Shown one piece after another: positions 2,539-31,036 of a stretch of DNA of 57,298 nucleotides. The notes beneath the pieces were generated by a model that had not been told where the DNA came from, ran no database searches, and saw nothing but the letters and a program-made list of their open reading frames with translations. A program made the translations under genes and the position numbers. Numbering within the stretch: position 1 is the stretch's first letter; every line of letters begins with the position of its first letter. Origin of the DNA: Parcubacteria group bacterium (GTDB lineage Bacteria > Patescibacteriota > Minisyncoccia > Phycocordibacterales > Phycocordibacteraceae); NCBI GenBank assembly GCA_028286945.1, contig JAQBQR010000020.1, forward strand, positions 1 through 57,298. The letters are read 5' to 3'.

Positions 2539-3320
2539 AATATTCTCGAAGTGTTGGGAGGATCACCCTTGCGGTGATCCTCCTCGCAGTGGTAGGTGTG
2601 CTGTTGTACGCCTACCCAACCTACTGCCTTTGGCTGGTCGTGTTGGTGATTGCGGCTTTCGCCGGGTACCTGACATGGCAACGCCTGACTGCAGGTGCAA
2701 CTGAAACAACGGATTCGGACGACAAAACCAGTCGTCCACCCAAGCTAACGGTCGTCCCCAAAAAGGACGCTCATGGAAGTGGTCTCAGTATCATTGCCAT
2801 TATCGCCATTTCCATTGGCAGTTGCTTGGTCATCCTGGCACTGGGCTGGTTTTTCCTGTATGGGGCTGGAAGCATCCCCCTATTTGGAGACCCGGGCACC
2901 GTGCACCACGTCAAGGTTCACGCATCGGCGAGAGCTTCGACACATGGGGGACGCTCACGCGTTTCCCTGGCCGAGGCTCGGGCTAAGGCGAAAACTGCAG
3001 CACTGGCCGAGCGTACCCGCATCTTGAAGCTCAAGATCGCGGTCGACTTCGACTACGACCACCCGCCGAAATGGACGCAGAATCCATACGGCGAATACGT
3101 TCTGCACTACAAGCTGGTTGTGGGGAAACGGCTTTTCATCCAATGCTCAGCATCGGACGACGAGCCTGATTTCCATGCGAAAGCCGATGACCTGGGCTAC
3201 TTCTGCTCGCCTGAGATGGCGACGGGAGCGAACTCGGGAAACTGGTTCCGCCCACTCGCCTATTCCAAGGAAGAAGGCAAAGAGCAGGTCATCATCTGGT
3301 TTACGCCGAAGGCCGTGTAA
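2535..3320 (+). CDS. Hypothetical membrane protein, translationally coupled to the SPFH-like gene
   Basis: ATGA start/stop overlap with the upstream gene, and GGAGGA lies 6 nt upstream. Two N-terminal TM helices, one central TM helix (LSIIAIIAISIGSCLVILALGWFFLY) and a C-terminal soluble domain. No recognisable motif. Confidence 0.6.
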   Translation: MKYSRSVGRITLAVILLAVVGVLLYAYPTYCLWLVVLVIAAFAGYLTWQRLTAGATETTDSDDKTSRPPKLTVVPKKDAHGSGLSIIAIIAISIGSCLVILALGWFFLYGAGSIPLFGDPGTVHHVKVHASARASTHGGRSRVSLAEARAKAKTAALAERTRILKLKIAVDFDYDHPPKWTQNPYGEYVLHYKLVVGKRLFIQCSASDDEPDFHAKADDLGYFCSPEMATGANSGNWFRPLAYSKEEGKEQVIIWFTPKAV

Positions 3321-6798: not shown

Positions 6799-7335
6799 TT
6801 ACCGGTCAGGTGATGTAAAGACGATAGCATAATGATGCGCCCCTGCGCGGAAATCTTTCAGCTTATGAAAACCGCCAGTGATAAATAACTCTTCAGCTGC
6901 ATGTTCTGAAACCACGTGTGCCGGATTAGGACCCATACCGCCATACGCTCCAGCCCAATCCACCACCAACAAACGTCCTCCTGGTTTAAGGATACGCATA
7001 CACTCCGCAACTAAGGTTTCCTTATTCTCTACCTGAAAAAGCACGTTCGAAATAATCGCCGCATCAATAGCGTGGTCACGCAATTTCGTTCCCCCTTTAT
7101 TTTCAATATTTCCCCAGAGTATTTCTACATTCCTTAGTGCCAGCTTATGTGCTGAATCAAGCAAATGCTTTAGCACCTCTTCTTGAATATCAACGGCATA
7201 CACGCGACCATCATGTCCCACCGCTGCCGCTGCGGCCAGCGAGTAATGTCCGGTACCTGCACCAAGATCAGCAACCTTCATTCCCTCTCGCAATCCGAGC
7301 TGCAATACATTTCCTTTTGGGTCGGCAAAGTTCAT
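6799..7335 (-). CDS. Class I SAM-dependent methyltransferase
   Basis: Motif I VADLGAGTGHYS and post-I AVDIQ, plus LKPGGRLLVVDW. Confidence 0.8.
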   Translation of the reverse strand: MNFADPKGNVLQLGLREGMKVADLGAGTGHYSLAAAAAVGHDGRVYAVDIQEEVLKHLLDSAHKLALRNVEILWGNIENKGGTKLRDHAIDAAIISNVLFQVENKETLVAECMRILKPGGRLLVVDWAGAYGGMGPNPAHVVSEHAAEELFITGGFHKLKDFRAGAHHYAIVFTSPDR

Positions 7336-7352
7336 TAGTATAAAAATAGCAC

Positions 7353-7375
7353 GGGGCGGTCCGCTGGACCGCCCC
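7353..7375. terminator. GC-rich hairpin flanked by A/T runs on both sides (bidirectional terminator shape)
   Basis: ggggcggtcc-gct-ggaccgcccc with tttcaacattttttt on the plus side and ctattttta on the minus side. Confidence 0.6.
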
Positions 7376-7402
7376 TTTCAACATTTTTTTATGCGCTAAC
7401 TG

Positions 7403-7618
7403 TCAGCGTGCCATCATCAAAATTCTCAGCACGCCCACAATAAAGTCCCAAAAGCGCGAAAGACTGCTCTCAGGTGTCTTCTGATCTGCGTCCTTCAAGG
7501 GAGCGGCATAATAACCGATAATCTCCACACCCTTGCGATCTGCGAGAAACGCGTTCATCCCTCGCTTAAAAGAGCCTGGTCCTGTAATTCTGACCTCATG
7601 GTTCTTGGGCAGGCCCAT
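7403..7618 (-). CDS. Hypothetical small protein (71 aa) downstream of gyrA
   Basis: ORF only. The ATG at 7618 is preceded by AGGTG. No motif recognised. Confidence 0.35.
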   Translation of the reverse strand: MGLPKNHEVRITGPGSFKRGMNAFLADRKGVEIIGYYAAPLKDADQKTPESSLSRFWDFIVGVLRILMMAR

Positions 7619-27730: not shown

Positions 27731-28756
27731 CTATTGACCGCTTATCGTAAATGTTCCTGTTATGGTTCCTAAATTTACTCCGGTAATCTCAGGTACTGCC
27801 ACTATTTCATACGTACCAGGCTTCAATTTTTCAGCCGTTGATGGTGAGCCAATAAATTCAGAAATCGTTTCTCCTGGCAAAACAGTGTGTGTCAGTATAT
27901 GACCTTCTTTAGCTTCACAAGCCTGGCGGTCAGATGCATTGTCATAGACTGGTGTGTCACTTTTAGTTCCATTAGAAACAGCGTAGATTCGAACCGACCC
28001 ATCACAATAGGGCGTTGAAACTATTGCAACGTGTTGGGTACTAAGATTCTTATACTGCAGCGCAGCGAAGAAGCTTTTTACCGAAGCAAACACACTTTTA
28101 GATGGACCTGTCCCATTAAATACGATGCTGGCATTGAGTGAAGGGGCCTCACTTCCTCTGAGTGGTATAGAGACATTTCTTTGTATACGGTCAGCAAGAA
28201 GTCCGCATGCTTTTGTCATGTTGTTTTGCGTAAGTAAATTCATGCTTCCTGAGGCGAGAAGACCATGCTCTGTTTGGAAGCGCGATAGATTGATCGATGT
28301 TGTCGTATTCGTGGAACCTGTCGCGAAGGTCTTTGCATCGAGGCCATAGTAAGCAGCTAGAAAAAGTTGTACCTGTTTTATAACTGCGCTGGTTTTATAG
28401 TACGCGTCTAGATCAGACGTAAGCTGCTCAAAACTTGCTGACTGACTAAAGGACTTATTCAGCACGGAACAATTGAGGCTGAGGACTGAATTCTGAGCCG
28501 CAGTAGAGGTAGGGGCGACTGCTGATTGAGCAGTAGTAGTACTAGTAGAAGTCGATTCCTGGTCTTGAGCAGTTACTGAAGTTGCGTGCCCAACCACGCT
28601 TGGAGATGCTGGGCTATTTGAATTGCTAAAAACTACATACGCGGCTCCTACCAACATGCCAATTCCGACTATGGCAGCAATCAATACAGGTGCGGTGACA
28701 AACCCTCTTGGCATGGGTAAGACGTAATTAAACGTCTTAGTCGTTGGAGTTTCCAT
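27731..28756 (-). CDS. Hypothetical membrane-anchored secreted protein (341 aa)
   Basis: TM anchor APVLIAAIVGIGMLVGAAYVVF, a Ser/Thr-rich linker and a Cys-containing ectodomain. No motif recognised. Confidence 0.55.
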   Translation of the reverse strand: METPTTKTFNYVLPMPRGFVTAPVLIAAIVGIGMLVGAAYVVFSNSNSPASPSVVGHATSVTAQDQESTSTSTTTAQSAVAPTSTAAQNSVLSLNCSVLNKSFSQSASFEQLTSDLDAYYKTSAVIKQVQLFLAAYYGLDAKTFATGSTNTTTSINLSRFQTEHGLLASGSMNLLTQNNMTKACGLLADRIQRNVSIPLRGSEAPSLNASIVFNGTGPSKSVFASVKSFFAALQYKNLSTQHVAIVSTPYCDGSVRIYAVSNGTKSDTPVYDNASDRQACEAKEGHILTHTVLPGETISEFIGSPSTAEKLKPGTYEIVAVPEITGVNLGTITGTFTISGQ

Positions 28757-28836: not shown

Positions 28837-29226
28837 TTAGGAAAGGCTTGGCCCAGCATCGAGATGAATCTCATGCCATTCCGATGGACTCAGATCAAGA
28901 ACCGATGTATAAAGGTCAACGATTTTCACGGCGAGTTCTCCTCGGCGCATCAATTCGCCCGGCTCAATGTGTGGACCTACAATATAGGTTTCGCCTGGGC
29001 GCACCTCTTGAGCACTCATTTGTGTTCGATCACGGAGTCGAACGTAATCATAGTAGTCGCTCTGGGATTCAGGAGTTGATTCCCATTTTTCTTCGCACGC
29101 TTCACAATAGAAGAATCTGATATCGTATGTATGCTTTGCCGCCGGGATACCTTCTGGCTTCACTCGTGCGAAGTTTCCATTATTGACACTCACGTTTCTA
29201 GATTTGCAGTGGGGACAGATAACCAT
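28837..29226 (-). CDS. Hypothetical zinc-ribbon protein (129 aa), third gene of the Shedu-like operon
   Basis: CPHC at residues 4-7 and CEAC at 41-44 form a four-Cys ribbon. The start is 2 nt after the upstream stop. Confidence 0.6.
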   Translation of the reverse strand: MVICPHCKSRNVSVNNGNFARVKPEGIPAAKHTYDIRFFYCEACEEKWESTPESQSDYYDYVRLRDRTQMSAQEVRPGETYIVGPHIEPGELMRRGELAVKIVDLYTSVLDLSPSEWHEIHLDAGPSLS

Positions 29227-29228
29227 GA

Positions 29229-29549
29229 TTAGGGAGTGACGTCCTCCATAAGGAACTTTAGGCCATTGACCTGACCTTCATCGCTTAGGGAATAGATTTT
29301 GTAGTAAACCGGTTGTGAAGCATCAAAAATTGATGCCGCGATTTCTACGAGAGCTTCTTGTAACCATCTGTGTACGTGCGATTGCTTAAGACCTACATCA
29401 CCGGGAACTTTGAAGTGGTCGCTTATGTAGTTCCTACCCGCGCCTACGAGTACGGCGGCTTTTGATCCGTCCTCGAAGGTCAAGTGAACGCGAGTCCAGT
29501 AGAAAAACTTTGGTGCTTCGTAATGCAGGTTTTCGTGTTCTATATGCAT
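29229..29549 (-). CDS. Hypothetical protein (106 aa), second gene of the Shedu-like operon
   Basis: ORF with its start 2 nt after the upstream stop. No motif recognised. Confidence 0.55.
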   Translation of the reverse strand: MHIEHENLHYEAPKFFYWTRVHLTFEDGSKAAVLVGAGRNYISDHFKVPGDVGLKQSHVHRWLQEALVEIAASIFDASQPVYYKIYSLSDEGQVNGLKFLMEDVTP

Positions 29550-29551
29550 AT

Positions 29552-30733
29552 TTATTTTGAATGATCCTCAAGCACCTTTATATAATTCTGAAGTCGACTA
29601 AGGAGTTCGTCGTAAGTAACGAAGACGATATTCTTTGTCGACTGACAGAGAAGTCTGAAGTCATCGCGCTCCTTGCCAGGGCTAAATTTGCGAGTGTCGC
29701 CAGCGAGAATGATTCCGCGTGGTCGGACGACCTTGAGCTCAATGCCATAGGTATCACGAATATAATTCCGCACAACGTCTGCTTGATGCTGTACGAATTC
29801 AATATAGTTTTCGACCTGAATTATGGCTTTGGCAATTTCAGGATCCCAGTAATAGTTCTTTCGTCCCGCATCATACTTCAAAAGCTGCGTATTAGGCTTC
29901 TTAATCTCCAAAATATCGAGGTAGTTATCGTGCGTCACAAGCATGAAGTCTGGATACTTTGTACCGCCGATAGCCACGTTCATCTTCTCTATTGCAGATA
30001 TATACCCCTGCTGGATGATAAGAATGTTTCCCTTAATGTACGTCTGCCACCAACCTTCAGAATAGGTACCATCGAGAGCCTTTTCGAGGTTAGTAGCTAA
30101 TTCCTTAAGTGTCTTTATCTGTGCTCCTGCTTTCAAGAGGTTAACTGTGTTGAGTGATTCTGATGCGATATAGTCGGGTAGGAATGTATTCATAGCTTCT
30201 CGATCTTCAGCCGATAGACGTGGAATGATTTCACCGTTCAACATATGGGAAAGAGTTCCAGCCACATATACGGGAGTCGAGCTATGCGTGAAGTGCGATG
30301 GATAAACGATGGAGAAGAAGTTAGCGACTGTATCATTCTTGATATCTCTCGTCCTATCCCTGAGGGTATCTCCCATTCTTTTCAGAGTTTTTTGCGAAGT
30401 ACGGATTCGCTGAATACCCCGCTCAAATTTTATAGAATCCTCTTCAGGTGTAATGATCCAGCGAAATCGTTCATTCCCGAACTTACGCTTCAGTGCCTCG
30501 AGTATATGTTTCCCAAAGGAAATGGACCCATCTTCCTTACTGAGACCCTTCGGCATCTTGCCTTCGTAGTAGATCTTGATCCCCTTGAGGGCATTGCCGT
30601 AGCCCTTATTCGAAACGACTACGTATTTATCTTCTTTTTTCTTTTTGGGCACGGGCTTCTTCACAGTCTTCTTGACTGCTTTCTTTAGGATTTTCTTCTT
30701 TGCTACCTTCTTTCTAGAAGCCATGTACCACAT
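29552..30733 (-). CDS. Shedu-like DUF4263 PD-(D/E)xK nuclease with a lysine-rich N-terminal tail
   Basis: GGTKYPDFMLVTHDNYLDILEIKKPNTQLL contains PD...ExK, followed by IIQVENYIEF (QxxxY). Both are characteristic of SduA/DUF4263 and RecB-like nucleases. N-terminus is KKVAKKKILKKAVKKTVKKPVPKKKK. An alternative ATG lies at 30724. Confidence 0.65.
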   Translation of the reverse strand: MWYMASRKKVAKKKILKKAVKKTVKKPVPKKKKEDKYVVVSNKGYGNALKGIKIYYEGKMPKGLSKEDGSISFGKHILEALKRKFGNERFRWIITPEEDSIKFERGIQRIRTSQKTLKRMGDTLRDRTRDIKNDTVANFFSIVYPSHFTHSSTPVYVAGTLSHMLNGEIIPRLSAEDREAMNTFLPDYIASESLNTVNLLKAGAQIKTLKELATNLEKALDGTYSEGWWQTYIKGNILIIQQGYISAIEKMNVAIGGTKYPDFMLVTHDNYLDILEIKKPNTQLLKYDAGRKNYYWDPEIAKAIIQVENYIEFVQHQADVVRNYIRDTYGIELKVVRPRGIILAGDTRKFSPGKERDDFRLLCQSTKNIVFVTYDELLSRLQNYIKVLEDHSK

Positions 30734-30811
30734 TCTATGCTTCTCTCAGGACAGCACAATGGTTATAAAGTTCCGTGTCCACTTCAAGAGGAACACTGGC
30801 GCTCAATCCAG

Positions 30812-30896
30812 CGGAGAGGGGGAGATTCGAACTCCCGATACCTTTCGGTATGCCGGTTTTCGACACCGGTCGTTTCAACCACTCACGCACCCCTCC
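30812..30896 (-). tRNA. tRNA-Ser (anticodon CGA), long variable arm
   Basis: The reverse complement folds as follows. Acceptor ggagggg/cctctcc, anticodon stem ccggt/accgg with loop gtCGAaa, variable arm cataccgaaaggtatc, T arm gggag-ttcgaat-ctccc. Confidence 0.85.
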
Positions 30897-30963: not shown

Positions 30964-31035
30964 GGTCCCATCGTCTAACGGTTAGGACGCGGCCCTTTCA
31001 CGGCTGAAATCGGGGTTCGATTCCCCGTGGGATCA
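30964..31035 (+). tRNA. tRNA-Glu (anticodon UUC)
   Basis: Acceptor ggtccca/tgggatc, anticodon stem cggcc/ggctg with loop ctTTCac, T arm cgggg-ttcgatt-ccccg. Confidence 0.9.
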
Positions 31036-31036
31036 C

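Follow-up and report, generated by a model that had tools for sequence, protein, structure and literature searches.

A Shedu nuclease gene downstream of tRNA-Ser in a Parcubacteria group bacterium and its optional small companion genes

The locus and its Shedu nuclease

The window analyzed here, a stretch of 57,298 nucleotides (nt) from contig JAQBQR010000020.1 of a Parcubacteria group bacterium, carries three tightly packed genes on its reverse strand, subsequently designated A (sduA), B and C, which lie downstream of a tRNA-Ser gene. An earlier note on this DNA had described them as a Shedu-like module, i.e. a DUF4263-type nuclease followed by two small partners next to tRNA-Ser and tRNA-Glu. 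The open reading frames (ORFs), the tRNA genes and the quoted motifs were all found where that note had placed them: the translation of A holds YPDFMLVTHDNYLDILEIKKP, QVENY and KKVAKKKILKKAVKKTVKKPVPKKKK, and that of C holds CPHC...CEAC. The following features make up the locus (aa, amino acids).

29552..30733, (-): A (sduA), a 393-aa ORF; 390 aa from the probable start at 30724
29229..29549, (-): B, a 106-aa ORF
28837..29226, (-): C, a 129-aa ORF
30811..30896, (-): tRNA-Ser(cga), from ARAGORN and Rfam; same direction as sduA and 77 nt upstream of it
30964..31036, (+): tRNA-Glu(ttc), divergent from tRNA-Ser; a host neighbour without counterpart in related cassettes
30734..30810, (-): tRNA-to-sduA spacer, conserved with the related loci L001, L008 and L043; candidate promoter and degraded hairpin

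The A-B and the B-C junction each consist of TAA, 2 nt and ATG, bearing out the tight coupling of the small genes to the nuclease gene that had been proposed. No terminator-like structure was detected between A, B and C or after C, nor any structure at the gene junctions. This packing and the missing terminators are compatible with a single transcript, without proving it. Both the homologues of A and its database entry P0010 (390 aa) begin at the second ATG of the ORF (30724, 'MASRKK'), and 30724 is therefore the likelier start of A, giving a protein of 390 aa.

The domains of A are arranged as follows.

aa 1-36 of A: Lys-rich disordered tail
aa ~37-223 of A: unclassified N-terminal region
aa 224-378 of A: SduA_C (DUF4263) domain of the PD-(D/E)xK type

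Protein A is almost certainly a Shedu nuclease. It matches the Pfam family SduA_C (PF14082) with 101.1 bits (cutoff 27; E 8.9e-29) over profile positions 2-159 of 159, and 22 SduA models of PADLOC detect it as well, the best with an E-value of 3.5e-28. When a profile of A and 21 homologues was compared with the PDB, Shedu structures alone were returned, namely EcSduA (8ps4) and BcSduA (8ti8/8ti9); the chains 8ps4/8ti8 match aa ~194-370 of the A-family profile. Residues E226, Q230, D262, E276, K278 and Q306 of A are invariant in the alignment of the 22 homologues and align in 8ps4 to E226, Q230, D269, E283, K285 and Q314 of EcSduA, respectively, on a presumed 3-residue numbering offset of the PDB chain. 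Hence, the family assignment of the 393-aa protein and the intact PD-(D/E)xK site that had been read from its motifs are both upheld by the profile matches and the six active-site residues.

Like EcSduA (8ps4) and the SduA protein of B. cereus (8ti8), A carries a C-terminal SduA_C domain of the PD-(D/E)xK type with all active-site residues, preceded by an N-terminal regulatory region. The ~220 aa ahead of the nuclease domain are conserved throughout the subfamily and correspond to the Type 1 architecture, in which an N-terminal domain is followed by the nuclease. Two traits set A apart from these known proteins. First, its N-terminal ~190 aa are strongly conserved in the subfamily, yet have no relative in Pfam or the PDB. 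Second, A possesses a Lys/Arg-rich terminal tail, with 17 K/R among the first 36 aa and an isoelectric point (pI) of 9.65 for the whole protein. Basic N-terminal tails of 7-35 aa, nearly free of acidic residues, are present in almost all of the 22 aligned members, some of which have basic C-terminal tails in addition. The basic tail pointed out in the earlier note is therefore a real trait whose composition is conserved across the SduA subfamily, and its composition suggests that it may bind nucleic acid non-specifically.

Homologues of A are abundant. At least 761 were retrieved at E <= 1e-3, and the best 120 are all full length with 55-84 % identity. They occur in Parcubacteria, Taylorbacteria, Paceibacterota, Saccharibacteria, Falkowbacteria and Kerfeldbacteria, and also in Rhizomicrobium, Acidobacteriota, Bacteroidota, Ignavibacteriota and Oligoflexia; several are already named "Shedu immune nuclease family protein" by NCBI. 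Judged by this distribution, the subfamily is a widespread, horizontally transferred Shedu clade that extends from the candidate phyla radiation (CPR) to Acidobacteriota. As is the case for other Shedu genes, the orthologues of A are mostly single genes on mobile elements or islands. A, B and C were not found in viral contigs, nor A in phage records. Among plasmids, A matched only Shedu genes of 24-27 % identity and C matched nothing.

The small genes B and C

Protein C is a real and conserved, but rare gene product, as judged by homologues of 45-78 % identity in independent contigs, which share its length and four invariant Cys residues. Its family is very small: of 1.84 billion clustered proteins, 38 representatives belong to it at E <= 1e-3. 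Two domains can be distinguished in C, which are separable, as each also occurs alone.

aa 1-51 of C: four-Cys zinc ribbon, CxxC-x11-13-[FY]AxxKxEGxPxxK-x8-10-[FY]xCxxCxxW
aa 52-129 of C: acidic helical domain, pI 4.7, with the motif ELAKxI..Y..LDLxPxEWxEIxxD

The zinc ribbon noticed earlier from the CPHC...CEAC motif is thereby corroborated. The AlphaFold2 (AF2) model of C contains three strands and three helices (predicted local distance difference test, pLDDT, 72), and its confidence is lowest in the conserved loop at aa 18-33 between the zinc knuckles. Low confidence there would be expected of a partner-binding element, which the loop may be. C gave no match above threshold in Pfam, PADLOC, NCBIfam or PHROGs, where only generic zinc-ribbon matches with E-values of ~0.001-0.1 were obtained, and its profile matched no PDB sequence. 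Foldseek comparison of the model with the PDB and BFVD yielded nothing at E <= 0.001, and only generic TFIIS or zinc-ribbon viral proteins were seen. An iterated zinc-ribbon hidden Markov model applied to all ORFs of all loci detected no further members.

Protein B, which comprises 106 aa and is mildly acidic, likewise is a real, conserved but rare gene product according to its homologues. These share 58-67 % identity and were found in L005, L006 and L043 only, in addition to a tail fragment in L007. In all these cases and in the window, B is located between SduA and C. No match to B was obtained in Pfam, PADLOC, NCBIfam or PHROGs, and comparison of its profile with the PDB was also empty. The AF2 model (pLDDT 62) has a beta4 plus helices topology and found no counterpart at E <= 0.001 when searched by Foldseek against the PDB and BFVD; the top match is Pur-alpha/Whirly-like with a probability of 0.21 and may serve as a lead only. 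Neither the B nor the C model, both of modest confidence, matched CapW or BrxR in Foldseek, with all PDB matches at E >= 0.2.

The earlier note had suggested that the three genes may form an undescribed multi-gene Shedu variant. Shedu has been described as a single-gene system in which an N-terminal domain regulates the nuclease (PMC10441436). KELShedu of E. coli, composed of KELA and KELB, combines a DUF4263 nuclease with a partner of ~110 aa encoded at a distance of 3 bp, and this partner binds the N-terminal region of the nuclease and modulates its activity (PMC12577705). Given this precedent, multi-gene Shedu is not new as a concept.

To count partners, we used 111 loci that were retrieved via SduA itself. 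A C-type zinc ribbon is present in five of them, full-length in L013 and L043 and as zinc ribbon only in L011, L084 and L092, and B is present in a single one (L043). Orthologues of A with 79-83 % identity (L008, L040, L039, L041) lack both B and C, and most orthologues have no conserved neighbour at all, as would be consistent with a single-gene function; the window copy, with its B and C, differs. In other words, the trio does not co-occur and stay collinear as a rule, since most orthologous sduA loci are devoid of both small genes. As few SduA loci carry B and C and close orthologues do without either, the two genes are, on this survey, optional and not defining components of this Shedu clade.

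These counts bear directly on the idea of an obligate three-component Shedu, in which B and C would be required as sensor, inhibitor or adaptor and A would fail to defend, or would be lethal, without them. The 2-nt gaps and the fixed A-B-C order in the window, L043, L005 and L006 would suit such a system, as would the recurrence of the trio or of the A-C pair with divergent SduA lineages, and KELShedu is a case of an essential small partner. However, the idea is at odds with the 79-83 % identical orthologues and with the low frequencies of C and B given above. Moreover, every lineage includes A-C pairs that lack B (L001, L003, L013, L121), and C also serves non-Shedu genes. We therefore regard an obligate trio as unlikely.

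Just downstream of sduA, the ORF differs greatly between loci; 67 singletons were counted, besides a few small families. A family of ~112-aa proteins without known domain, designated D, occupies the slot of B in L039 (2335-2673), L042 (1518-1856), L084 (1564-1905) and L119 (668-1003). In the first three loci it directly follows sduA, and in L119 it lies between a Hypoth_Ymh gene and a C homologue; the L119 member has 111 aa and is 43 % identical to the family found behind sduA. In L084, the D gene downstream of sduA is accompanied by a C-type zinc-ribbon ORF upstream. Immediately after sduA of L008, a 159-aa protein with a SEC-C motif is encoded (2617-3096). In L030, a 107-aa ORF with a CxxC...CxxC pattern overlaps the sduA stop codon (7122-7445) and shows a weak DUF7564 match, as does C; profile comparison revealed no relationship of this ORF to C, nor of the other ~100-aa proteins in the slot to B.

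Genomic linkage of C and the island setting

C is linked to SduA non-randomly, as judged by its genomic contexts. It lies immediately downstream of sduA in the same direction, with a gap of -20 to +26 nt or with B in between, behind three divergent SduA lineages. The first is the window type (window; L001, 84 % identity; L043, 73 %; L013, 62 %; L005). The second is the L003 type, which has a different N-terminal part and 34 % identity (L003, and L006 with B), and the third is the L121 type, which has the same architecture and 32 % identity. In L121 (1001-7682, contig CBCISH010000001.1), a compact defence island, the genes encode a tyrosine integrase, an HTH_17 protein, a RepSA-like Rep, DpnI, a 78-aa ORF, SduA, the C homologue and Fic. 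Stand-alone small ORFs with the zinc-ribbon signature of C and the same loop motif are moreover located 36-59 nt upstream of sduA in L011, L084 and L092, and the association of C with SduA is therefore independent of gene order.

Thirteen contexts were reached via C or B themselves and are hence unbiased as to the neighbour. Of these, 7-8 adjoin SduA and two follow Hypoth_Ymh. In one the upstream gene is a DUF2188 fragment and in another it is an unidentified gene, and the last is a zinc-ribbon-only form behind rpoB. The Hypoth_Ymh cases (PF09509, matching PD-Lambda-3_B of PADLOC) are L123 (5077-6390; the same in L124 and L125, 14 contigs) and L119 (3-1390). The Hypoth_Ymh protein of L123, which is the complete one, has a Lys/Arg-rich N-terminal tail, MKKRRKKAKVTAAPKRRR, resembling the SduA tails, and its gene adjoins a ParB_N/N6_N4 methyltransferase and a serine recombinase. 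In the rpoB context (L126, 1762-1926; L127, 188-1226; L128, 812-976), a C homologue of 54 aa consisting of the zinc ribbon only is encoded just after the end of rpoB. Behind it come an ORF of 115 aa that is rich in Cys and a 169-aa protein weakly matching PDDEXK_5 (E 0.002); SduA is missing there. Taken together, the contexts describe a nested dependency: SduA occurs by itself, C depends on an effector located upstream, usually SduA, and B depends on both.

B and C could also be passenger cargo in a variable slot between sduA and a recombinase gene, functionally unconnected to the nuclease. The slot with its 67 singleton ORFs, the D family and the SEC-C protein lends itself to this explanation, and so do the other genes behind which C is found and the related recombinases (50-88 % identity) flanking many C-bearing contigs. 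Against mere cargo, C is always oriented alike and follows its upstream gene at -20 to +26 nt. It is also linked to SduA on an element of another kind, which carries a tyrosine integrase (L121), and where a recombinase is missing (window, L013), and zinc-ribbon-only relatives reside on the other side of sduA. Finally, the non-Shedu partners recur, with Hypoth_Ymh being joined twice independently. On balance, we consider the cargo explanation somewhat unlikely. The proposed undescribed multi-gene variant is thus borne out insofar as C is linked to three divergent SduA lineages irrespective of gene order; it does not hold in its general form, because C-type genes and B are scarce among sduA loci, C also pairs with Hypoth_Ymh, and multi-component Shedu has a precedent.

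The window represents core chromosome with gyrA, aminoacyl-tRNA synthetases, LepA, MurJ, RNR, TsaD and EndoV, and in no other locus does sduA have one of these genes nearby. Nine related loci have a tRNA gene of the same direction 120-240 nt upstream of sduA, with five different tRNAs being represented: Ser-cga, Ser-gct, Ser-tga, Gln-ctg and Gln-ttg. In the window, tRNA-Ser(cga) lies on the same side of sduA and probably marks where the cassette was inserted. The cassette is closed by a convergent large serine recombinase (Resolvase, Recombinase and Zn_ribbon_recom domains) in L001, L003, L004, L007, L043, L039, L040, L047, L086 and L048, and more distant recombinases are present in ~15 further loci. 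In L002 (2715-3146), which is the same element as L043, a reverse-transcriptase (RVT_1) fragment adjoins the large serine recombinase of the A-B-C element.

This arrangement raises the possibility that C serves the mobile element, e.g. as a recombination directionality factor or as a small regulator of the large serine recombinase. C abuts the convergent recombinase gene in L001, L003, L004 and L007 and belongs to a recombinase-bearing element in L123, and recombination directionality factors are small and diverse, which would accommodate a protein like C. However, C is missing from half of the elements that carry this recombinase family (L039, L040, L047, L086, L048), and C is kept without serine recombinase in the window and L013 as well as on the tyrosine-integrase element of L121. 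Since C is also co-oriented and packed with the effector gene rather than with the recombinase gene, a role in element mobility appears very unlikely.

The base composition of the module is unremarkable and host-like, with a GC content of 0.44-0.48 as compared to 0.489 +/- 0.033 for the mean of the window ORFs and a tetranucleotide distance at the 82nd percentile. From this composition, the earlier note had concluded that the operon is resident rather than recently acquired. The composition indeed agrees, but the cassette of the relatives sits at five different tRNAs and is bounded by a large serine recombinase, and the other neighbours of the window copy recur in no related locus. The locus is therefore probably what is left of a mobile Shedu cassette, inserted long ago and now devoid of a recombinase, and not an ancestral resident gene.

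Starting from the 3' end of the tRNA, the spacer is conserved between the window (30734-30812, (-)), L001 (94-200), L008 (1350-1420) and L043 (1384-1491), despite differing anticodons of the tRNAs (cga versus gct). In L001 and L008 it folds into a long, imperfect hairpin, which is marginal (z about -1.9) and partly deleted in the window. Rfam detected only the tRNAs when applied to the tRNA-sduA spacer. The conserved segment might act in tRNA termination or processing, or else be left over from a recombinase attachment site. It also contains a promoter-like pair, i.e. a -35 sequence TTGTGC (30759-30754) and, after a 16-nt spacer, a -10 sequence TAGAAT (30737-30732), which ends 8 nt before the ATG at 30724. 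A scan for consensus promoters did not list this pair, which we consider a candidate sduA promoter that would yield a leaderless or near-leaderless mRNA.

At the other end of the module, 80 nt downstream of C, a 341-aa protein with an N-terminal hydrophobic segment and a Ser/Thr-rich stretch is encoded (27731-28756, (-)). It has no Pfam or PHROG match and no homologue in any related locus, and presumably is a host surface protein outside the cassette. A perfect TATAAT is located 9 nt before the ATG of this gene downstream of C (~28775-28757).

Possible function of the accessory genes

In the explanation we favour, to which we attach an evenly balanced degree of belief, the locus encodes a Shedu effector that stands alone and an optional, modular pair of accessory proteins modulating it, and lies in a tRNA-adjacent island remnant. 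A would form a tetramer, as do EcSduA and BcSduA. Its N-terminal region would keep the nuclease inactive as long as no nucleic-acid cue associated with infection is bound, and the Lys-rich tail would contribute non-specific affinity for nucleic acid. C may bind the effector, probably via the conserved and poorly modelled [FY]AxxKxEGxP loop of its zinc ribbon, and may thereby tune the activity of the effector, restraining it in the manner of an antitoxin or else serving as an additional trigger or adaptor. B would be a further add-on to C. The three genes would be co-transcribed from the conserved promoter-like element, possibly as leaderless mRNA. In support of such a control, Shedu nuclease domains are toxic without their N-terminal domain.

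Several observations weigh against this explanation. About 95 % of the orthologous sduA loci do not contain C, and C is therefore dispensable for the nuclease. As C also follows Hypoth_Ymh, the DUF2188 fragment, the unidentified gene and, in a zinc-ribbon-only form, rpoB, it is not specific for Shedu. It often abuts a serine recombinase, and part of its linkage may reflect a shared island backbone. The proposed interaction of A, B and C is read from gene linkage; likewise, their co-transcription, which is probable, and the promoter are read from the sequence. The models of B and C are of modest confidence and found no significant fold match. Finally, tblastn with three recombinase queries detected no recombinase anywhere in the 57-kb window, and att-like or tRNA-derived direct repeats were not found there either. 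The latter result is uninformative, because serine recombinases need only a 2-bp core.

The accessory-pair explanation can be extended, as a more tentative possibility, beyond this locus. The C family may represent an undescribed, portable regulatory or sensor subunit for unrelated effectors, which include three SduA lineages and the Hypoth_Ymh/PD-Lambda-3_B-like proteins. B and the 112-aa D family would then be interchangeable middle adaptors, and two- and three-component Shedu variants would exist in CPR and other bacteria.

Compared with known Shedu systems, the distinguishing feature is that a subset of the relatives of A has a zinc-ribbon partner downstream, with or without B. The arrangement also differs from KELShedu, since C is encoded downstream, combines a zinc ribbon with acidic helices and is shared with a non-Shedu effector. 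The second recurrent upstream partner of the C family is the defence-candidate protein Hypoth_Ymh (PF09509) of PD-Lambda-3; none is present in the window, and its relevance is limited to showing C as a modular accessory. A resemblance exists to MqsR/MqsA (TIGR03830): MqsA likewise has ~130 aa, an N-terminal CxxC...CxxC arrangement and a helical C-terminal domain and is encoded downstream of a potentially toxic enzyme, and the same partner family combines with different effector families, as does C. An assignment of C to the MqsA antitoxins was nevertheless rejected, as TIGR03830 scored 12.3 bits against a cutoff of 61.8, no helix-turn-helix was detected and no MqsA was returned in the PDB sequence and fold searches. 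The resemblance is an analogy only. In the literature, we found no description of a zinc-ribbon partner of Shedu.

Shedu is treated as the textbook case of a single-protein defence, with sensing by the N-terminal domain. A portable zinc-ribbon partner of several Shedu lineages and of an unrelated effector would, if true, mean that control is also exerted in trans, much as by the WYL-type regulators that are common to CBASS and BREX. The conserved loop motif, together with natural pairs of orthologues with and without C at ~80 % identity, would in this case provide a testable handle. If B and C are mere cargo, the locus is an ordinary Shedu gene; its significance depends wholly on a role of the C family as a portable partner of effectors. 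Apart from this, the locus documents a compact defence cassette next to tRNA genes that is exchanged between Patescibacteria and other phyla, which bears on the question how genome-reduced CPR bacteria gain immunity.

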